DNA from: Escherichia coli
GTDB lineage: Bacteria > Pseudomonadota > Gammaproteobacteria > Enterobacterales > Enterobacteriaceae
Length of the DNA: 23,185 bases
NCBI GenBank assembly: GCA_022664555.1
Contig: GCA_022664555.1_4839.1
Strand: one strand, 5' to 3'
This document shows positions 4,117 through 21,722 of the stretch, piece after piece. The position numbers and the translations under genes are program-made. Each line of letters starts with the position of its first letter. Within the stretch, counting starts at the first letter, position 1. The notes under the pieces are model-generated. The model was not told the origin of the DNA. It made no database searches and worked only from the letters and a program-made list of their open reading frames with translations.

Positions 4117-4141
4117 TATCCTCGCTTTATAGGCGAGGATA
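4117..4141 (-). promoter_or_regulatory. 9-bp hairpin that contains the SD of CDS 3944..4111
   Basis: TATCCTCGC / GCGAGGATA perfect inverted repeat with a 7-nt loop, sitting exactly between the stop of CDS 4148..5383 and the ATG at 4111. The GAGGA of the downstream SD lies inside the stem. Confidence 0.4.
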
Positions 4142-4147
4142 TTTATA

Positions 4148-5383
4148 TCAGCGTTTCAAGAGTGTCATGAGGTTGACGCTGCTGGACTTCGACTTGTCCT
4201 CAACCTTGCGCACAGGCATCTTCAGGTTCGTACATACCTCGGATGGTTCCCAGCGCGTACCCTTTTGCAGGTGCCAGATATGCAGAGGAACACCAGTCTC
4301 AAAGAACACAGGCATCTTCCACTTCTGGACGCCTGGAACGTGCCCTGCAGGAGCCTTTTCGCACAACAGGGTATCTGGCAGCCAGAGCGAACGGGCTTCC
4401 CAGAGCGCTGCGCAGGAGTATTCAGGCCAGACGCGTTCCATGTAGTCTATCTCATCCCAGGTACGCTCTGCGTCCCACCCGATGTAACGGGTATTCTTCA
4501 GTCGGAAGAATTTCTTCAGCCAACAAGCACCGGAGGTTTCAAAGTTCAGACGGTTGATGAACGTCAGATGCCCAAACTCAGCCACACAATCCTGGAACGC
4601 CTGCTCAAGGTCGGCCTCAAGGATGTCACACTCTTCATCCGTGATAGGACAACCGTTGATCTTTTTCTTCCCGTGTTTAGTCACCCAATCGTCACGGTTG
4701 GATAAGAACGCCGCGCCATTACGGTTGGACTCGCTTCCATCACGATCACGCAGCATGAAGCCAGGGACGTCAATGGTGTATTCGTTTCCGAATACCATGT
4801 TCAGGGCTTCCAGGAAGTTCCAGGCGCTCAGGCGACCGAAGTATTTCCAGGACATCGCCGTGTCCCACAGCTGGGTGAATTGTTCTGTCTTATCGATGCA
4901 CACCAACATCCCACGGAAAGCGTCATATTGAGTACGGCCAGCCAGCCAGTCAATATAGGACTGTACACACGGAATCATCTTGGACTTGCGGTAGCGACAG
5001 TCGGTATCGAATCGCATGCGATCAAAGTTCAGATTATACCAATCAGAGAAGCGCTGCATCTCTTCCTTAGACTGAGGCGGCACAGGGAACTCACTGTAGA
5101 TAGTCCACGGTCCGACAGCGTTATAGCAACAACCCCACAGGAATGCCATCCAGATCTTGCGCTCGACTTTCTGTTCGAGGCTGATGCCTTCAGTGGCTTC
5201 GATCGCATAGTCCATCAGACGCATCTGCTGGTTGTGCTCTTCTGTGTAGGACAGCGCCTCCACCCAAGCCTTGAGCAAGTACATGCGATTCTCAGGCTTG
5301 CGATAATCAACAGCTAGGTCAATCGGGTACTTCCATTCAGCCGGAGGCGTATAGCCCGTCGGCATTTTAGATAAATGATGCAT
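4148..5383 (-). CDS. hypothetical protein, Trp/Cys-rich (411 aa)
   Basis: Long uninterrupted track ORF; ATG at 5383 with GAGGAAG SD. No motif I can assign with confidence. Confidence 0.65.
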   Translation of the reverse strand: MHHLSKMPTGYTPPAEWKYPIDLAVDYRKPENRMYLLKAWVEALSYTEEHNQQMRLMDYAIEATEGISLEQKVERKIWMAFLWGCCYNAVGPWTIYSEFPVPPQSKEEMQRFSDWYNLNFDRMRFDTDCRYRKSKMIPCVQSYIDWLAGRTQYDAFRGMLVCIDKTEQFTQLWDTAMSWKYFGRLSAWNFLEALNMVFGNEYTIDVPGFMLRDRDGSESNRNGAAFLSNRDDWVTKHGKKKINGCPITDEECDILEADLEQAFQDCVAEFGHLTFINRLNFETSGACWLKKFFRLKNTRYIGWDAERTWDEIDYMERVWPEYSCAALWEARSLWLPDTLLCEKAPAGHVPGVQKWKMPVFFETGVPLHIWHLQKGTRWEPSEVCTNLKMPVRKVEDKSKSSSVNLMTLLKR

Positions 5384-5940: not shown

Positions 5941-6846
5941 TCACCCCTTCTTCATCAGGTCAAGGAGAGAGCGCGACGCTGCCTTCGGTGCTTCTGGCTG
6001 GGCGCTCGCCTTGGTTTTAGTTTTGGATGCCTTCTGCGGCTTCTCAGGCACTCTGTGCGCCAAAGGATCATCACCGCCGACCTCACGGGTCATTGGATTG
6101 GTTTCACAGTAGGCATAAAAATCTTTGATGTCAAGGTTAACCGCGCCGATATCCATCTGATAAGCGATAGCATCCCCGACAACCCAAAGAGGGGCATCAA
6201 ACGGCATGACTGCCAGTTCGCTACGTGGATCCATTTCCCACTCATTCTGAGAAGGTTTTGTATACTCAACATCCTGCCCACTGTACACGTCTGCCAAAAC
6301 GTTCCACCCCAGTGCCAACATTTCGGCCTTCGACTTCTCAAACTCCTTGTAGTAAGATTCGTTGCGCGACCAGCCGGAGTTCCCTGCTTCTTTACCAGAG
6401 CGACCACGGATACGAGCATCGTACTGATAGCGGTCGGGGTACGCAAAGTACAGCAGCGCCAATGATTCAATCGGATAGTTCTTGAACATCCATTCAGGAC
6501 GCCATTTGTCCGATAGCATGAGAGGTTCTCCCTCGCACACCAGAGTGTATCCCTGAACCAACCAGCACTTGATTAGATCACGAGCAATATCGCCTGAGCC
6601 TGTAGCAGCATGGATTGCATCCATTGAAGTCCAGGAAGCCAGGCCGGACTTGTTAGACACGGTGTACTGTCCAACGAAGATTAACTTCAGCTCTCCGAAC
6701 TTCAGGCCAAACGGGCGAGTCTTGTCACCAACGGTGTAGGTCAGTTCGGTAGGCTCCAGCTTAGTGCGCAGCCATTCGATGAACTGGACCACTCTCGTAC
6801 CCTTGCCCGTGGCCGAGGTGCCTTTCACTACAATTATTTTAGCCAT
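5941..6846 (-). CDS. P-loop nucleotide kinase-like protein (301 aa)
   Basis: Walker-A motif near the N-terminus (IIVVKGTSATGKGT, GxxxxGKGT type as in guanylate/nucleoside-monophosphate kinases). GGAGAA SD before the ATG at 6846. No HAD DxDxT motif, so not a T4 Pnk-type fused kinase-phosphatase. Confidence 0.5.
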   Translation of the reverse strand: MAKIIVVKGTSATGKGTRVVQFIEWLRTKLEPTELTYTVGDKTRPFGLKFGELKLIFVGQYTVSNKSGLASWTSMDAIHAATGSGDIARDLIKCWLVQGYTLVCEGEPLMLSDKWRPEWMFKNYPIESLALLYFAYPDRYQYDARIRGRSGKEAGNSGWSRNESYYKEFEKSKAEMLALGWNVLADVYSGQDVEYTKPSQNEWEMDPRSELAVMPFDAPLWVVGDAIAYQMDIGAVNLDIKDFYAYCETNPMTREVGGDDPLAHRVPEKPQKASKTKTKASAQPEAPKAASRSLLDLMKKG

Positions 6847-7525
6847 TTAATATTCTCCAACCGAGACATGTTTTAGCCCTACCTTTCAAGAGATTCGTTA
6901 TATTACCGGAAGGGAGGCCATATTGAAGTTCCATGTCGCATCTTCTTAACTCAACGATGCGACCATCTTTGTGCTGCCATTTGTAAATCTTTTCATCGCG
7001 ACCAGGACCAATGTCTATCAGACCAAGAGCATGCAGCCTCTTCCTAGTTTCCCCTCCACGCGTTTGAGATTCAGAGGAAGGTCTTGGTGGTTTGGGGATC
7101 TTCCCTTCTGACATCAATTTGCTTATAATCTTACCCTTTCTGGCTTGTGCTTCAGGGGTGAGTCTTGGTGGAGGTTTAATCTTACCTTCAGCGATCAAAC
7201 GTTTGCGGGTTGCGGCGCTCTTTGCGGATGACTCTGGCGTGGCCAATGGAGGCTTCCCACCCCCGACGACCATGTTATAACACCACCCAGAGTCAAGGAT
7301 CTCCTGGCAGACCAGTTCAGACTCTATCTGAAGGATAACCGAATCTTTCCCTCGGAACAGAACTTCAAACTTGAACTGGTCTTCACCGTATTTCTTGAAC
7401 GCTCGTTGTAATGCAATGCTCCCCTGACCACACTTATGCTCAGTCAACCGCCTATCCGGTTCTGAGGTGACACCGATATAGAATTTATGATTGACGAGAT
7501 TCGTGATCAGGTAGAGCGACAGCAT
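6839..7525 (-). mobile_element. GIY-YIG homing endonuclease gene (Seg-like, 228 aa)
   Basis: N-terminal LYLITNLVNHKFYIGVTS carries both halves of the GIY-YIG motif, with downstream Arg/Glu catalytic-region residues. The C-terminal half has tandem basic proline-rich repeats (GKIKPPPRLTPEAQARKGK / GKIPKPPRPSSESQTRGGETRKR), consistent with a DNA-binding domain. Overlaps both neighbours (TAATG at 7523-7527; 8 nt with the kinase-like gene). Confidence 0.85.
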
Positions 7526-8986: not shown

Positions 8987-9019
8987 AGGGGGAATTATAT
9001 CCCCCTTTGGTTTATTGAA
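8987..9019. terminator. GC hairpin between the DNA polymerase stop and the next gene (terminator or attenuator)
   Basis: AGGGGGA / TCCCCCT stem (8987-8993 / 9000-9006), followed on the plus strand by TTGGTTTATTGAA. The minus-strand U-tract is poor. Confidence 0.4.
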
Positions 9020-12019
9020 TCAACCTTTCTTCTTTTGCATCATGGCAAGAAGGTTCACACGGCGCTTGTGTGACCAGCCGACCACGTCGAGGATAGACTG
9101 AATCGGATCAATGAAGGACTTCTCAAAGGCCGCCTGATAATCCACCCATTTGCCCAGACCAAGCTCCTCGGGGAAGAACTCAGGATATGCAAAGTAATTC
9201 TGGCCGAATGGGTTGCCCGGCTTCAACAACACCATCTGTACCTTATCACCCGACTCGATCATCGGTAGACCCAGATCTTCGTTCTTCTCAACCAGACGGT
9301 TGTAACCCACACAAGCCTTTGCAGCAAAATGAGCACCAGAGATGAACGATCCGTCAGCAGCCACACACTTCTCTATGTCGGACACGCCTGACGCCTTGGC
9401 GATATCGTCTACAGAGAGTTTCATGTACTCCTCTTTGTACTGGGAGATGAGCGTCTGTACTTCCTCTTCGGTGCCGAGTAGGATCTTCTCATAGCACTTG
9501 ACAAGACGCTCACGACACCATTCCGGCGTGGTGGACTTGCGGGCTTCCAGACCTTTGAACTTGATCTTCGGCTTCTCGTACTTGATACCCTCACTGTCGT
9601 ACACGGCCATGGCATACATCTTCTTGGCTCGCCAGACAGCGGCTGACGCAATGACCTCACGCTCCCACACCATGCGCTGTTCAAATCCGTTCATGGTGTT
9701 ACACAGAAGCTGTGCCCACTCATTGGTCTTCGGCTGGTAGTTGTCTTTGATCCATTGGTCGATATTATCAACCATAGCATGATGGTCAGTAACATCAGGC
9801 CACAACTGCTTGACAAGACGCTCAATGCAGATGTAGTTGGAGTCGGTATCCCCTGCGATGACGAAGTCCTGGCCTGTTGTACCACACAGCTTGTTCAGAT
9901 AATCATCGGTGTAACGCTTGTTCCACTTGTTGATCAGCTGACCGGATGTGGTGATGGCTTCGGCAATGTTGAGGTTGAAGTACTCTTTGAACCAGACGTT
10001 TGAGATCGCGCCATAACCTGCGTTCATCAAGATCTTCAGACCTTGCTGTAGGGTATCTTGAGCGACGCCCAGGTCTTCCCACTTCTTCATCACTTCGGTC
10101 AGGGCATCAAGATCAATGTTCTTGTGCTCTTCATACCACTCTGGGTCATAATAGCGAGACTTCATGGCAGACTCAAGATGGAAGTCACCCTTCGACATCT
10201 CTTTACACCAGCCAGCCCACTGCTCATACTTCAGACCCTTAGCTTTCTCTACTTTACGGTCGCTGTAGATACCACGCATGATTTCAGACAGGAACGACAT
10301 CTTCTCGTTGCTGAAGAATTGAACGTTCGGCGTGAACGACACGTTGTAACGGCGCAGGGTTTCAAAGTGGAACTCACCCAGGGCAACCAACTCATCAACA
10401 ACCTGCAGGCGTTCGTCAACCGCACGCAACAGCTTGTCGTGAAGGGCTTTCATCAACCGACGTTTGTGCATCGGCGTTGCCATGTTATTCATCTGAGCAG
10501 CCAGCTCTTCACACATAGCCTCAATGATCTCGCGGCGCTGGTGTTTGTCGCCAACGATAGTCTCTGGACCGAGGTTGTACTGCTGAATGATGTGAGGATA
10601 CAGGGAGTTCAAATCTTCCGAGAAGACCCAGAAGTAGATTCCTGGTGTCACATCCATGACGTATGCACCCTCAAAGTCGGTCGGACCATCGTATACACGC
10701 TGGATCTTAGGCACTACCCCCTTCTCGTACAGGCGATAATAGCACATCGCCAGCCACGGAGCCACAGTGCCCAGACCGTCTTCATAGTTGGACTTGGTGC
10801 GGTACGCAAGGACGAACATCAGCTGGAGCAGACGCAGCTTATGTTCAAGTCGCCATACCAGCTTAACGTCTTTGATACCATATCGGGTGTGTTTGCAGTA
10901 GTCGTTGAAGTACAGATCAAAGAGCGACTTGCTCTCACTGTAGTCCATCTTCTTCTCACCCAGCTCACAATACGCAATCCAGTCAAGAGAGTAGCGTTCA
11001 CGGGTGGTGTACGTGTGTTTCTTGTAGATCTGCATATAATCGAGCATAGGACAGCCCACGAACTGATACGTCGTGATATCGCCCTTCTTATCGCGAATGA
11101 TACGCTTCTTAATGATACCCCAAGGACTCAGACGCGACGTTTCAGCCTCACCCAGAACCTGATTCATGCGCTCAACAAGATAAGGGCTATCAAACGTCTC
11201 AATGTTCCAGCCAGTCCATCCGTCGAACTGACGCTCCGACCAGAAGTCTAGGAACGAGCGCAGCAGATCTTGTTCGGTGGTGAACTCCTGATAAACAACC
11301 TCAAGGCCGCCGATCTCTTTGTCTTCGGTGTCGTATGCGAATTTGTTACGATCTTTGGCACAGGGCATACCCCAGACCATGAACTTATTGGTCGCCATGT
11401 CCTGAAGCTGGATCAGGGTAATGGGGAACGCCGCATTCATGTCTTGGGTGATCTTACCGTTGCTGTCAATGATAGGGAACTTATCAGTGACGTTGTTGCT
11501 GATAAAGGAACTGGGAAAGTGCTCACGGACAAAATCATGGTTGGCCAGAACTTGTTTATGGAAGCGGCGAATGCGCGCCTCATTTCCTTTGAACGTCTGC
11601 TGCTCAATGGTTGGGTGAGGGAATGGACCTTTGGTCATCTTTCCATCTTTCCACCCGGCGGAGAACACTTCGATATCGAGGTTAGCAATATGGATGTTGG
11701 AATAATCCGGCTCAATCTTTCCGGGAAAGCTATGGGCAATGAACTGGTATGCATAATCGGTCTGCCCGTAAATGGCAGCACCCTGGACTTCCTTGTACTC
11801 TTCAAGATAGTTGTCAGCGTCACGCATGGAAGGGAACTGCTTGGCTACCAGGGGTTCATTGAGAAGGCCGACCTTTTCAACATTTGAATAGTCAGCCGTG
11901 GGTAAATAGAGAGTGGGTTCGAATTTCTTTTTCAACAGACGGCGATTACCCATGTCATCTGCAATTCGAATCAACAGGTCATTGCCCCTGCGGGCAACGT
12001 TCGTATAGAAAACGGTCAT
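9020..12019 (-). CDS. 43: family-B DNA polymerase, T4 gp43-like (999 aa)
   Basis: 3-kb track ORF. Exo I motif (ANLDIEVF), polymerase motif A (SEDLNSLYPHII) and motif C (IAGDTDSNYI). The N-terminus (FY...QFPSMRDA) resembles T4/RB69 gp43 as recalled. GGAG SD 6 nt before the ATG at 12019. Confidence 0.95.
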   Translation of the reverse strand: MTVFYTNVARRGNDLLIRIADDMGNRRLLKKKFEPTLYLPTADYSNVEKVGLLNEPLVAKQFPSMRDADNYLEEYKEVQGAAIYGQTDYAYQFIAHSFPGKIEPDYSNIHIANLDIEVFSAGWKDGKMTKGPFPHPTIEQQTFKGNEARIRRFHKQVLANHDFVREHFPSSFISNNVTDKFPIIDSNGKITQDMNAAFPITLIQLQDMATNKFMVWGMPCAKDRNKFAYDTEDKEIGGLEVVYQEFTTEQDLLRSFLDFWSERQFDGWTGWNIETFDSPYLVERMNQVLGEAETSRLSPWGIIKKRIIRDKKGDITTYQFVGCPMLDYMQIYKKHTYTTRERYSLDWIAYCELGEKKMDYSESKSLFDLYFNDYCKHTRYGIKDVKLVWRLEHKLRLLQLMFVLAYRTKSNYEDGLGTVAPWLAMCYYRLYEKGVVPKIQRVYDGPTDFEGAYVMDVTPGIYFWVFSEDLNSLYPHIIQQYNLGPETIVGDKHQRREIIEAMCEELAAQMNNMATPMHKRRLMKALHDKLLRAVDERLQVVDELVALGEFHFETLRRYNVSFTPNVQFFSNEKMSFLSEIMRGIYSDRKVEKAKGLKYEQWAGWCKEMSKGDFHLESAMKSRYYDPEWYEEHKNIDLDALTEVMKKWEDLGVAQDTLQQGLKILMNAGYGAISNVWFKEYFNLNIAEAITTSGQLINKWNKRYTDDYLNKLCGTTGQDFVIAGDTDSNYICIERLVKQLWPDVTDHHAMVDNIDQWIKDNYQPKTNEWAQLLCNTMNGFEQRMVWEREVIASAAVWRAKKMYAMAVYDSEGIKYEKPKIKFKGLEARKSTTPEWCRERLVKCYEKILLGTEEEVQTLISQYKEEYMKLSVDDIAKASGVSDIEKCVAADGSFISGAHFAAKACVGYNRLVEKNEDLGLPMIESGDKVQMVLLKPGNPFGQNYFAYPEFFPEELGLGKWVDYQAAFEKSFIDPIQSILDVVGWSHKRRVNLLAMMQKKKG

Positions 12020-12037
12020 GTAATTCTCCAGGTTATC

Positions 12038-12052
12038 CGTGCCGTTAGCACG
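12038..12052 (-). promoter_or_regulatory. short hairpin in the DNA polymerase 5' leader (possible translational operator)
   Basis: CGTGC-nnnnn-GCACG 5-bp stem about 15-20 nt upstream of the polymerase SD on the mRNA strand. The position is analogous to the T4 gene 43 autoregulatory operator. Confidence 0.3.
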
Positions 12053-12098
12053 TGGGCATATTTAACCATAGAGCCATTCATTGACCAAGGAGTTTATT

Positions 12099-12671
12099 AT
12101 GGCAATCCCCCTCGTTGGTATGATCCCAGGGGCGCTCAAGCAACTCTGGAACCTCGGGACTGATTTGATACAATATAAGAGGGAAGTTGTACAGGCAAAA
12201 CACGACTTCAAGCTGGAGTACATCAAATACTCATCAGATTGTGAGCTGTCTAAGATCACCGAAGTCGGCGTGTCTTGGAAAGACGAATTCTGGACTATCG
12301 TGTTGGCCATACCCGCCATCCTCGTCATGACTGCTCCGGTTGTGGAACTGATTCTGTTCCCTGGTGAGTATCATAAAGGGGATTTCATCAAAGCAGTAAT
12401 CGGTGGCCTTCAGGCACTAGACACCGCACCTGAATGGTATACCTATTCGTTATTGACAGCAATTAGTGCATCATTCGGTATCAAAGGCTACAACCACTAC
12501 AAAAGCAACAGGCGAAAAGCCCAAGCTATGGATGCTCTCAAGCAATTTGGGGTTCGGGTCGTACAGAAAGATCCCACTGTTGTTACTCAGTCGGGTGCTC
12601 CCGATCTTGAGTCTGCTCCCCCAGCTGGGTCTACTGCGACCTCTGGTGCGTGGCCTGATCTGAAGAAATAA
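12099..12671 (+). CDS. membrane protein (190 aa)
   Basis: Track ORF 12081..12671 (TTG start) trimmed to the ATG at 12099 with a canonical AAGGAG SD 6 nt upstream. Two hydrophobic segments (AIPLVGMIPGAL; FWTIVLAIPAILVMTAPVVELILF). Diverges from the polymerase gene. Confidence 0.6.
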   Translation: MAIPLVGMIPGALKQLWNLGTDLIQYKREVVQAKHDFKLEYIKYSSDCELSKITEVGVSWKDEFWTIVLAIPAILVMTAPVVELILFPGEYHKGDFIKAVIGGLQALDTAPEWYTYSLLTAISASFGIKGYNHYKSNRRKAQAMDALKQFGVRVVQKDPTVVTQSGAPDLESAPPAGSTATSGAWPDLKK

Positions 12672-12677
12672 GTTCAA

Positions 12678-12702
12678 GGGGAGGAAACTCCCCTTTCTTT
12701 TG
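12678..12702 (+). terminator. intrinsic terminator
   Basis: GGGGAG-GAAA-CTCCCC (6-bp stem, GNRA-type tetraloop) followed by TTTCTTTTGG, just after the stop of CDS 12099..12671. Confidence 0.75.
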
Positions 12703-13021: not shown

Positions 13022-13579
13022 ATGGCAATCGAAATTATCGCTCAATCCAAATCTGGTAAAACTGTAATGTACGGCACTGAAGAAGGCCGCGCAATCACCA
13101 CTCTGGGCACAATTGACGGTTCCAACCCAGTGAAAGGCGGTCGCTACCTGGTTGAATACGGTTCACACCTGCTGATGGTAAGCAAAGTCGATGGTCGTGA
13201 AATCATGATTCCCCGCAAAGAGTACTTCGACTCGCGCATTGAAGCCATGAACTTCTTCCTTTTCCAGGAACGTCACGAACTGTTCGTTGAAGCGAAAGAC
13301 GCAGGCCTGGACGATGCGACTGCCGAACTGATCGCTGAAGGTAAAATGACTCTTGAGGCTGCTCTGGGTGACATGGATTGCGATGCTGAAGCCCATTACA
13401 TCGAATATTCCGCTTATCAGAATGAATGCGAAGACGATCCTGAAGATGACGGCTTCGACCCTGACCTTCACGGTGGCGAGGATGACAATACTCCTTCCCT
13501 GGAAGTGATCATGGCAGGCGGTCAGGCCGCTTGGGAGTGGCAGAACGAAAAGAACGCCTGGCTGGATTCTCACCTTTAA
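13022..13579 (+). CDS. hypothetical acidic protein (185 aa)
   Basis: Track ORF 12842..13579 trimmed to the ATG at 13022 (AAGGAAA SD, spacing about 8). The 5' extension in the track overlaps the preceding gene and the promoter-like region. Confidence 0.6.
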   Translation: MAIEIIAQSKSGKTVMYGTEEGRAITTLGTIDGSNPVKGGRYLVEYGSHLLMVSKVDGREIMIPRKEYFDSRIEAMNFFLFQERHELFVEAKDAGLDDATAELIAEGKMTLEAALGDMDCDAEAHYIEYSAYQNECEDDPEDDGFDPDLHGGEDDNTPSLEVIMAGGQAAWEWQNEKNAWLDSHL

Positions 13580-13589
13580 TGTGAAGAAA

Positions 13590-13620
13590 TAAAGAAAGGG
13601 GCTTAACGCCCCTTTTCTTA
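13590..13620. terminator. bidirectional intrinsic terminator between convergent genes
   Basis: AAAGGGGC-TTAAC-GCCCCTTT stem (GGGGC 13598-13602 / GCCCC 13608-13612, extended by A-T pairs) with T-tracts on both strands. Confidence 0.7.
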
Positions 13621-16512: not shown

Positions 16513-16601
16513 TGGCGGAAGGTGAAGGATTCGAACCTTCGGGGGCTAAAAGCCCCACTCGATTAGCAATCGAGTCCCTTAAACCTCTCGGGCAACCTTC
16601 C
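16513..16601 (-). tRNA. tRNA-Ser (anticodon GCU), class II with long variable arm, CCA encoded
   Basis: Reverse complement folds by hand into a cloverleaf: acceptor GGAAGGT/ACCTTCC (7 bp perfect), anticodon stem CTCGA/TCGAG with loop TTGCTAA, variable arm GGGGC-TTTTA-GCCCC, T-arm GAAGG-TTCGAAT-CCTTC, discriminator G, CCA. Confidence 0.9.
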
Positions 16602-16821: not shown

Positions 16822-16898
16822 TGGTGATCCTGGTTGGATTTGAACCAACGACCAATGAATTATGAGTTCACTGCTCTAACCGACTGAGCTACAGGACC
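16822..16898 (-). tRNA. tRNA with CAU anticodon (elongator Met, or Ile2 if lysidine-modified), CCA encoded
   Basis: Reverse complement: acceptor GGTCCTG/CAGGATC, D-arm GCTC-AGTCGGTTA-GAGC, anticodon stem GTGAA/TTCAT with loop CTCATAA, T-arm GTTGG-TTCAAAT-CCAAC, discriminator A, CCA. G1-C72 pair argues against an initiator. Confidence 0.88.
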
Positions 16899-19852: not shown

Positions 19853-19895
19853 TTCGAATAAATTAAACGCGCGCGAGCCGTTTTGATTCCCGTTG

Positions 19896-19903
19896 GCTAA
19901 ATA
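19896..19903 (+). promoter_or_regulatory. late-promoter-like CTAAATAT upstream of the gp6-like gene
   Basis: CTAAATAT lies 41 nt upstream of the ATG at 19944 and resembles the T4 late promoter core TATAAATA. The same CTAAATA core precedes CDS 13618..14076 on the minus strand. Confidence 0.3.
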
Positions 19904-19943
19904 TCTTCAACACCATATTCAAACTCAGGTGATGGAGATTATC

Positions 19944-21722
19944 ATGGCCACGCAAACAGTCCCTTCACTCGATGTCAGGGCTTTCGAGTATCTTATCAAG
20001 AAGCGCATGAAAGCTGATCCAACTTTCAAGGATTATGACTTTGAAGGTTCTGGTCTCAGTGCAATCGTGCGTATCTTGGCCTCGGATGCCAACTCTATCG
20101 GGTTCATGCAGAACATGCTGAATGGCGAAAGCCATCTTCACTCTGCTCAACAGCGTTCTAATGTCGGTCTTGCGGCCGGGTTCTTGTCGTACACCCCTCA
20201 TAACTACCAGGCGGCGTACCTGTACGCAAACGTCACAGTCACTCCATATGACGCCAGCACGGCTCCGGACACGATTATAATGGATCGCCGCGCGATGTTC
20301 ATTGGGGCGAAGGATGGCAAATCCTACAACTTCACGGTTGAACAACCTGTGAGTGCCTCTCTTGTAGACGGCTCTTACAAGTTCGAGAACATCAAACTCA
20401 TACAGGGTAACTGGCTGTACAAGTCCTATGATGTGGAAGGCAGCGCGATCTCTACCTATGTGATCCCATCTTCTTCCGTGGACATCGACCATATGGTGGT
20501 GCAGGTGCAGGAATCTGAGACATCTGACGTGCGGTCTACCTTCTCACGATACGTAAGCCCGTTCGATTTGAGCCAGTATGCGCAACTTTACTTCGTTGAG
20601 CTGGGGTTGGACGGGATGTACACGTTCGAATTCGGTGATGGGTATATCTGTAAGCGAGTAGAAGACGGGAACGTCGTGTACCTCCAGTATCTGGAGACAG
20701 CTGGTGCAGACGGCAATGACATCACTGCCTTGTCCTCCGCGTCTTCCATCGGGGGATTCAACCTTGTAGAAGTTGAGCTGGTCTCAGAACGTTCTTCCTG
20801 TGGTGCGGACCCAGAGAGCATTGAGGACATCAAGCGCCTTGCTCCGCTGGCTTATCAGGCTGAGGGTGCGGCAGTGGCCGAAGTCGATTATGCTGTGTTG
20901 ACCGAGCGTCTGTTCTCCAACGTCTCCCGCGCCAAAGCATATGGCGGCGACACGCTCTCTCCGCCCGACTCCGGATACGTTTACATTGCTGTGATACCTT
21001 CTGTTGGTGAGGCGCTCTCGGACGCTGAGAAGGCAGATATCGTGGCGACGTTGGACAAGTATAATGTGGGCACGATCACACCCAAGATTGTCGACGCTGA
21101 ACTGACTTATGTTGATGTCACCACCCGCGTGTTCTGGGATCCGACTTCCACGACCTACACCGAAGAGCAGTTGAAGACAGTCGTGAAGAACGGTGTTGTC
21201 AACTGGGGCTTGGGGAACCTAGAAGGATTCGACGAACTGTTCGATAAAGAGCAGTTACAGTCGGACATCACAGACATGGACAGATCGATAGTGTCAAACA
21301 TCACTTCTGTGAAGTATAAGCGCCATTTCAAGCCAGACTATGGGGTACTGGACAGCTTCACGTTCGATTATGGGCGCTCGATTGCATCTGGTTCTGTGCG
21401 TATCAGTGGGTTTAAGCCGCTTCCGGCCGAGGTCGAATTCACTTACTACATACGCGACGTCAGTGGTGTCCTGAATATGTACAAGGTGAGTACAACAGAC
21501 ACGACCAAGGAATATCTGGTACAAGCTGTTGGAACGGTTGAATATGTGAATGGCGTTGTTGAACTCCAGCGCATCACAGTATCCAACAACAACACCCAGG
21601 GAGAGAAAATAATCGAGTCTCCAGACGGTCTTGACCAGAACATTCAGGCCACACAGAATCAGGTGCTCCGCATTGGTGCTGTAACTGTGGAGCCGGAGGT
21701 GCGTTATGTCCAAAGATCTTAA
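19944..21722 (+). CDS. 6: baseplate wedge protein, T4 gp6-like / P2 gpJ-like (592 aa)
   Basis: Track ORF 19893..21722 (TTG start) trimmed to the ATG at 19944 with GGAGA SD 5 nt upstream. The N-terminal region DPTFKDYDFEGSGLSAIVRILASDANSIGFMQNM resembles T4 gp6 (EFLDYDFEGSRLNVLCDLLAYNTLYIQQFGN) as recalled. Confidence 0.8.
   Translation: MATQTVPSLDVRAFEYLIKKRMKADPTFKDYDFEGSGLSAIVRILASDANSIGFMQNMLNGESHLHSAQQRSNVGLAAGFLSYTPHNYQAAYLYANVTVTPYDASTAPDTIIMDRRAMFIGAKDGKSYNFTVEQPVSASLVDGSYKFENIKLIQGNWLYKSYDVEGSAISTYVIPSSSVDIDHMVVQVQESETSDVRSTFSRYVSPFDLSQYAQLYFVELGLDGMYTFEFGDGYICKRVEDGNVVYLQYLETAGADGNDITALSSASSIGGFNLVEVELVSERSSCGADPESIEDIKRLAPLAYQAEGAAVAEVDYAVLTERLFSNVSRAKAYGGDTLSPPDSGYVYIAVIPSVGEALSDAEKADIVATLDKYNVGTITPKIVDAELTYVDVTTRVFWDPTSTTYTEEQLKTVVKNGVVNWGLGNLEGFDELFDKEQLQSDITDMDRSIVSNITSVKYKRHFKPDYGVLDSFTFDYGRSIASGSVRISGFKPLPAEVEFTYYIRDVSGVLNMYKVSTTDTTKEYLVQAVGTVEYVNGVVELQRITVSNNNTQGEKIIESPDGLDQNIQATQNQVLRIGAVTVEPEVRYVQRS

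Follow-up and report, generated by a model that had tools for sequence, protein, structure and literature searches.

A near-invariant hairpin in the DNA polymerase leader of enterobacterial Ackermannviridae: a candidate RNA operator

Autogenous translational control of a replicative DNA polymerase is, to our knowledge, established experimentally in only a few T4-like phages, and a short hairpin in the polymerase leader of a phage of the Ackermannviridae raises the question of whether control of that type may operate there. The operator to which T4 gp43 binds consists of a hairpin together with a stretch overlapping the ribosome-binding site (PMC3014915). The DNA analysed, a stretch of 23,185 nucleotides called the window here, is from an Agtrevirus-like phage of the Ackermannviridae, as judged by its sequence; its nearest relatives, at about 97% identity, are Enterobacter phage fGh-Ecl02 and Salmonella phage vB_CECAV_050, and identity to the Agtrevirus phages SKML-39 and Ag3 is about 92%. 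In INPHARED, 279 records have a match to the region. Its polymerase aligns end to end with T4 gp43 (25% identity, E 2e-93), and the homologue is labelled DNA polymerase in the records of the relatives. The gene is one of a divergent pair:

9020-12019, minus strand: gene for the family-B DNA polymerase (gp43 homologue) of 999 amino acids, an ORF with the Pfam domains DNA_pol_B_exo1 and DNA_pol_B, ATG at 12017-12019
12026-12029, minus strand: polymerase Shine-Dalgarno GGAG, read from the sequence, 6 nt 5′ of the ATG
12087-12092, plus strand: Shine-Dalgarno AAGGAG of the divergent gene, read from the sequence, with CTCCTT invariant in all relatives
12099-12671, plus strand: divergent gene of 190 amino acids, whose only match is PHROG 2524 (unknown function)

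Because the polymerase ATG ends at 12019 and the divergent ORF starts at 12099, positions 12020-12098 are exactly the intergenic spacer, 79 nt in length. The initial annotation thus had the bounds of this region right, but the divergent ORF starts at 12099 and not at 12100. Of the signals for the divergent gene, which it also assigned to the spacer, the Shine-Dalgarno AAGGAG is there, and a promoter could not be convincingly placed. Calling the divergent product a membrane protein is a guess; a Pfam search with it returned no matches, and it has no match to a DNA-binding domain. The polymerase Shine-Dalgarno is present as GGAG or GAGG in all relatives aligned.

The end of the hairpin is 9 nt upstream of this GGAG, and the element is just as first described: a stem of five perfectly matched pairs and a loop of five nucleotides at 12038-12052 (cgtgc/cgtta/gcacg, read from the sequence). 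In the sense of the polymerase mRNA the leader runs TGGTCA-N17-TAAATA-TGCCC-A-CGUGC-UAACG-GCACG-GAUAACCU-GGAG-AAUUAC-AUG, and its central elements are:

12037-12053, minus strand: conserved 17-nt block A-CGUGC-UAACG-GCACG-G, the exact match being unique in the window
12053, minus strand: A of the block, the predicted +1
12052-12048, minus strand: 5′ arm of the stem
12047-12043, minus strand: loop
12042-12038, minus strand: 3′ arm of the stem
12037, minus strand: G that closes the block
12030-12036, minus strand: 3′ flank AUAACCU between block and Shine-Dalgarno, of which (A/U)UAA is kept across genera

The hairpin occupies -33 to -19 with respect to the polymerase AUG, with 18 nt from stem to AUG. 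Its stem has 5 bp, or 6 bp if a U-G pair in the loop is counted, and the loop is then of 3 nt, otherwise of 5. The predicted energy is about -6.4 to -7.9 kcal/mol, and in the transcript from the predicted +1 the hairpin is the only consistently folded part. In a single sequence this is only mildly unusual, since some 5-bp Watson-Crick hairpin turns up in 30% of the sequences made by shuffling the 79-nt spacer, and one with at least 4 G-C pairs in 2.8% of these and in 7.5% of tiles of 79 nt from the window; what makes it significant is its conservation. An Rfam search gave two sub-threshold chance matches (E 3.6 and 4.5) and no family. An intrinsic terminator or attenuator is not apparent, as the U-run is missing, the hairpin being followed by GAUAACCU, and a terminator scan of the spacer was empty.

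The leaders compared were from LIMEstone1 (Limestonevirus), Vi01 and other Kuttervirus phages, Magnus and other Taipeivirus phages, Serratia phage 2050H1 (Miltonvirus), phiEa2809 and Bue1 (Nezavisimistyvirus) and IMG/VR contigs, the latter including a metagenomic lineage (L091) with a polymerase 57-62% identical. The consensus A-CGTGC-T[A/G]ACG-G[C/T]ACG-G is nearly invariant in 25 distinct leaders, and the adjacent bases of the spacer vary freely. Conservation in the polymerase leaders of related phages had been proposed as the check on the element, and its absence as the refutation; on this count the element is clearly not refuted: the hairpin is found in six genera, Agtrevirus-like, Limestonevirus, Kuttervirus, Taipeivirus, Miltonvirus and Nezavisimistyvirus, and also in the one metagenomic lineage. 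When each lineage is represented once, pairwise identity averages 0.96 in the block and 0.55 in the remainder of the spacer, and the block is the most conserved 17-column stretch in a 230-column alignment that includes the coding flanks. The distance from stem to AUG in the other Ackermannviridae genera is 18-21 nt.

In IMG/VR each Ackermannviridae contig carries a single exact 17-mer, always just 5′ of the polymerase gene; about 20 other matches in IMG/VR, roughly the chance level, are in unrelated contigs with no polymerase nearby. The 153,282-bp genome of a close relative, ON212266.1, has one exact 17-mer, and its sites with up to 5 mismatches are not above the number in shuffles. One genomic target is likewise what characterizes gp43-type operators. 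A single near-copy with 3 mismatches, ACGTGGTGACGTCACGG, is at ON212266.1 position 41798 on the minus strand (L142), with about 0.35 expected by chance; it is still hairpin-capable, with the loop UGACG, and lies antisense within a VriC-like ‘virulence-associated protein’ gene.

In the Vibrio Ackermannviridae D494, K469 and VAP7, where the N-terminus of the polymerase is about 45% identical, the hairpin is missing and a TTGTCA-16-TATAAT promoter is retained; the hairpin is also missing from PhiW-14, Xanthomonas phage BUDD, Stenotrophomonas phage Ps15, Acinetobacter phage PhT2 and marine T4-like contigs. Two metagenome scans for diverged relatives gave nothing useful, and a viral-contig scan anchored on the -35/Shine-Dalgarno block found, beyond the known contigs, only chance matches. 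Among the distant T4-like polymerase leaders surveyed there are no UAAC hairpins outside Tevenvirinae and RB49. A hairpin with a UAACG loop in Vibrio phage D494 is weak and absent from K469. The annotated polymerase starts of D494 (L068, 384-440) and K469 (L069), given as ATG 440, are apparently too far downstream, as the SVFYTNV motif is encoded upstream of ATG 440, which implies a GTG start near 384, preceded by AAGAGGG.

All five stem pairs form in 12 of the 12 distinct sequences. Covariation, for which the stem had also been proposed to be checked, did not materialize: there are no compensatory changes, four pairs are invariant and one goes from G-C to G-U, a pattern that weighs neither for nor against the structure. 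This single stem substitution, C to U (C to T in DNA), is in two Erwinia phages and represents one event, though one with a direction: the polymerase-sense RNA has G-U as a result, the antisense RNA would have an A-C mismatch, and the palindrome in the DNA is lost. The loop has only one variant, UAACG to UGACG in some Kuttervirus phages, with AC retained. That the loop bases are conserved as strongly as the stem bases argues for sequence-specific recognition over mere structure.

The spacer has two more conserved blocks, ACTCCTT(G/T)GTCA(A/T)TGA, which holds the divergent Shine-Dalgarno on one strand and the -35-like hexamer on the other, and, 16-18 nt downstream of it, an A+T-rich box. The features that bear on transcription are:

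12082-12087, minus strand: -35-like TGGTCA, which shares one base with the divergent Shine-Dalgarno on the opposite strand
12058-12065, minus strand: -10-like box TTAAATAT, readable as TAAATA (12064-12059) or AAATAT (12063-12058), conserved in position
12676-12695, either strand: bidirectional terminator-like G+C hairpin directly after the divergent gene

The -35-like hexamer is TTGTCA in Miltonvirus, Nezavisimistyvirus, L091 and the Vibrio relatives. Scores of the pair of boxes against the sigma-70 consensus are 10-11/12 in Bue1, L091 and the Vibrio relatives and 7-8/12 in the window and Kuttervirus, and a stricter consensus sigma-70 scan called no promoter in the spacer at its threshold, so that the promoter reading is based on positional conservation and on the better-scoring relatives. 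TTAAATAT is compatible both with a (C/T)TAAATA late-type motif and with a weak sigma-70 -10. In the LIMEstone1 record the hexamer at this place is labelled ‘putative late promoter’, a call made in silico from consensus matching only. In the genome of the relative ON212266.1, 25 of 56 TAAATA sites are 15-78 nt upstream of a Shine-Dalgarno and ATG (45%, against 8-30% for ten control hexamers), and the genes behind them are mostly structural, including baseplate, sheath and scaffold.

The invariant A at 12053 is 5-8 nt downstream of the -10 element, under either the sigma-70 or the late-type reading, so that the hairpin would start 0-3 nt from the 5′ end of an mRNA predicted, from sequence, to begin at or near 12053. 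The terminator-like hairpin at 12676-12695 and a second bidirectional one at 13594-13616, between convergent genes at 13579 and 13618, should block minus-strand read-through from upstream, which supports a promoter inside the spacer. Of the 20 TAAATA-proximal leaders in the relative’s genome, the polymerase leader alone folds stably at its 5′ end, with -7.9 kcal/mol where the others have 0 to -3.6. The motif (C/T)TAAATA(C/T), which resembles a late-promoter-type motif of Ackermannviridae, is in the window at 12058-12067 on the minus strand and at 19895-19904 on the plus strand; the latter, GGCTAAATAT, is 40 nt upstream of the ATG, at 19944, of the baseplate wedge (gp6) gene. The canonical T4 TATAAATA has a single occurrence in the window, at 4140-4147.

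The explanation that best accommodates these features, and which is put forward tentatively from sequence and from analogy with T4, is that the hairpin may be a 5′-terminal RNA operator through which translation is repressed, the polymerase itself being the probable repressor. The 17-mer would act as a cis-acting RNA hairpin with a UAAC loop, at, or within about 3 nt of, the 5′ end of the polymerase mRNA; polymerase in surplus over its DNA substrates would bind the hairpin along with the 3′ flank, which is single-stranded and leads into the ribosome-binding site; and the bound polymerase would block the 30S subunit and so hold polymerase synthesis at a set level, as gp43 does in T4, RB69 and RB49. 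A UAAC loop core is common to the T4 and RB69 operators and was selected in the original SELEX, and the loop bases most important in the operator are the 3′ AC or AA (PMC3014915). The gene 43 leaders of T4, RB69 and RB49 were read directly for comparison and, with the T4-like phage VR7, are set out here beside that of the window:

T4: TATAAT, 8 nt; stem AGCCU/GGGCU with loop AAUAACUC; AUAAACUAAGGAAUAUCU, then AUG (18 nt)
Window: TAAATA, 5 nt, A; stem CGUGC/GCACG with loop UAACG; GAUAACCUGGAGAAUUAC, then AUG (18 nt)
RB69: TATAAT about 24 nt upstream; stem AGAC/GUCU with loop AAUAACUC; 12 nt to AUG
RB49: TTGACA-17-TATAAT directly upstream; stem CUUUC/GAAGG with loop GUAAAU; overlaps the Shine-Dalgarno
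VR7: loop AAUCACUC, with UCAC

The window and T4 have in common the leader of an orthologous family-B polymerase gene, a stem of 5 bp, a loop that contains UAAC, a distance of 18 nt between stem and AUG, the Shine-Dalgarno in a single-stranded 3′ flank (GAUAAC here, AUAAAC in T4), and a -10 box a few nucleotides upstream, which would put the hairpin at the 5′ end of the proximal transcript; the UAAC, 18-nt and AUAAC resemblances are post hoc observations. They differ in the loop, which is UAACG, of 5 nt, here and AAUAACUC, of 8 nt, in T4, in the stem (CGUGC/GCACG versus AGCCU/GGGCU), in the polymerase, which is 25% identical, and in that the polymerase gene here heads its own divergent unit and is not beside regA-62-44-45. 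The eight-nucleotide AAUAACUC loop is thus not found in the window hairpin, but that length is a feature of the T-even subgroup and not of the class, because the accepted member RB49 has GUAAAU. What is found of gp43-type features is the leader position, a short hairpin with a single-stranded 3′ extension that holds the Shine-Dalgarno, and the UAAC core, in place of which the class also has UAAA or CAAC. With a 4-bp stem and 8-nt loop in RB69 and a 5-bp stem in RB49, the window element is within the range of the class in stem length and position; compared with RB69, RB49 and VR7 the xAAC core is kept and the stem sequence is unrelated, those phages being Straboviridae and this one of the Ackermannviridae. 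The analogy drawn in the initial annotation with the T4 operator is closer than was stated there, through the UAAC loop, the 18 nt to the AUG and the 3′ flank; against it are a loop of 5 nt instead of 8, the lack of covariation and the Vibrio members of the family that have no hairpin. As intermediate lineages are without the hairpin, homology with the T4 operator is doubtful and convergence equally possible. Gene 43 directly follows regA in T4, RB69 and RB49; the gp45-gp44-gp62-RegA cluster of Ackermannviridae is at 68-71 kb in ON212266.1 (L142 40917-43576), about 55 kb from the polymerase gene.

Several features favor this operator explanation: the near-invariance across six genera with polymerase identity down to 57-62%, the UAAC loop core and T4-like geometry, an RB49 hairpin that also immediately follows a TTGACA-17-TATAAT promoter, a stem whose one change keeps pairing in the polymerase-sense RNA only, one copy per genome combined with a stable 5′ hairpin unique among 20 leaders, and a full-length gp43 homologue in a family that keeps T4-type RegA, gp55 and gp33. 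Counting against it are the absence of any compensatory change, with four of five pairs never varying, the loop of 5 (or 3) nt versus 8, the unrelated stem and the 25% polymerase identity, and the lack of the hairpin in Vibrio and distant T4-like phages. Some T4-related polymerases are also without autoregulation (PMC3014915). Half-sites that are 10 bp apart, centre to centre, count against it too, as they suit a dimeric DNA-binding protein.

That last consideration leads to a double-stranded DNA operator, in which CGTGC-N5-GCACG would be bound by a dimeric transcription factor of phage or host, overlapping the polymerase +1 in a divergent control region and repressing or timing one or both genes. 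In its favor, the inverted repeat has no mismatch, its centre is at the predicted +1, its half-sites are separated by one helical turn and the divergent spacer around it is short; invariance without covariation is what a DNA site contacted by protein would show, and the flanking GGWTAA can be read on the other strand as a -35-like TTATCC or TTAACC. This explanation is a real rival but an unlikely one. The five central bases are conserved like the arms, which is unusual between half-sites, and the one arm substitution breaks the DNA symmetry while keeping G-U pairing in the polymerase-sense RNA. There is, moreover, a single site in 153 kb, no obvious neighbouring regulator gene and a divergent product without a DNA-binding match, and the plus-strand promoter reading has poor hexamers, with an overlong spacer in Kuttervirus.

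Quite unlikely, too, is that the hairpin is a plain 5′-terminal stabilizer of the mRNA against attack by RNase E or RppH, or a processing site, with no specific repressor involved. Protective 5′ hairpins, such as that of the ompA leader, require a geometry close to the 5′ end, and the 0-3 nt from the predicted 5′ end seen in every lineage, under either promoter reading, is in keeping with this. A stabilizer needs only its stem, so that drift and free loop variation would be expected; while sequence is unconstrained in ompA-type stem-loops a few nucleotides from a 5′ end, stem and loop are both nearly frozen here, and none of the relative’s other promoter-proximal leaders has a comparable hairpin.

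An RNA operator read by another protein, for which the RegA homologue, some other RNA-binding protein of the phage and host factors are among the candidates, is very improbable: evidence for sequence-specific RNA does not by itself name the binder, and Ackermannviridae do encode, beside gp45-gp44-gp62, a homologue of RegA, which exerts translational control on replication-gene mRNAs in T4-type phages, but in T4 RegA has about 30 targets, with sites that are A+U-rich, lack structure and overlap the AUG, whereas this is a structured, G+C-rich, genome-unique hairpin upstream of the Shine-Dalgarno and 18 nt from the AUG, with a UAAC loop that points to gp43-type recognition (PMC3014915).

Other features of the leader were considered and set aside. 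An extended fold that takes in the entire spacer, with GGUUA paired to UAACC and CUCUA to UGGAG so that the Shine-Dalgarno is masked (z = -2.6), was rejected as the main feature because the -10 box makes up its 5′ half, which thus lies upstream of where the mRNA is predicted to start, and because the outer pairing is lost in Miltonvirus and Nezavisimistyvirus. Pairing of the Shine-Dalgarno UGGAGAAU with GUUUUCUA of codons 3-5 (Val-Phe-Tyr), 12006-12013 with 12023-12030 on the minus strand, appears incidental: z is -1.9 to -0.4, the pairing is present in Vi01 and absent from the Serratia and Erwinia phages (two genera), and its 3′ half is fixed by the VFY codons. A CACGTG palindrome is GACGTG in Kuttervirus and hence unconserved. 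Hidden coding does not explain the block either, the overlapping ORFs being an antisense one of 54 aa and a four-codon uORF only, unconserved among genera. The mini-ORF AUG CCC ACG UGC UAA (12045-12059, minus strand) covers the 5′ arm and loop, with its AUG upstream of the predicted start; LIMEstone1 and Taipeivirus have the equivalent AUG GGA ACG UGC UAA, and Kuttervirus, Miltonvirus and Nezavisimistyvirus have none.

That the enterobacterial Ackermannviridae have a polymerase-mRNA operator pair of their own, with the same UAAC determinant as T4 and RB69, is rather doubtful but merits attention for what would follow. Recognition of UAAC hairpins by the nucleic-acid cleft of gp43-type polymerases would then be either ancient or evolved more than once, and a second, divergent system would be at hand for solving the complex of a polymerase with its operator RNA, of which there was no solved structure according to a 2010 review (PMC3014915). 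A second, sequence-divergent operator candidate makes testable both the generality of this control and the RNA features that the polymerase reads. The literature searched on regulation of the polymerase leader in Ackermannviridae yielded nothing, a review of the family being silent on promoters and operators, and the hairpin appears to be undescribed in that literature. Ackermannviridae are widely used in biocontrol and phage therapy, with phages of Salmonella, E. coli O157, Klebsiella and Dickeya, and the hairpin leader would be a compact regulatory part for engineering them. For annotation, the leader offers two additions that current Ackermannviridae records lack, a non-coding element that is conserved and a site where transcription probably starts.

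A few other features of the window and of its relatives were seen along the way. Directly after the polymerase stop, at 8987-9023, is a G+C hairpin, AGGGGGAATTATATCCCCCT, whose loop holds a TATAAT -10; the minus-strand promoter-like TTGATT-18-TATAAT there scores 10/12 and resembles a terminator-promoter junction before the next gene. In marine T4-like IMG/VR contigs (L096-L127) a G-rich/C-rich terminator-like hairpin recurs about 60-75 nt upstream of the polymerase start, with a -35 TTGACA in its loop, then a T-run and TATAAT or TATACT, and it also reads as a terminator-promoter unit. On the minus strand at 5941-7525 are overlapping ORFs, 5941-6846 (301 aa) and 6839-7525 (228 aa), where fGh-Ecl02 has one 1599-nt ‘putative homing endonuclease’; the split may come from a frameshift or a sequencing error, or mark a pseudogene. 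With ARAGORN the window yields just two tRNAs, tRNA-Ser(GCT) and tRNA-Met(CAT), at 16513-16601 and 16822-16898 on the minus strand, and the equivalent region of a close relative has four annotated tRNAs (Ser, Tyr, Asn and Ile), so that the tRNA cluster differs between near-identical phages. This relative also has a DUF3990-like gene at about 14.1-14.6 kb. The gene at 4148-5383 on the minus strand is the counterpart of a relative’s homologue of alpha-glutamyl/putrescinyl thymine pyrophosphorylase, of thymidine hypermodification, and the minus-strand block to which it belongs also holds the polymerase gene, two deoxyribonucleotidase-like genes and a thioredoxin-like gene.
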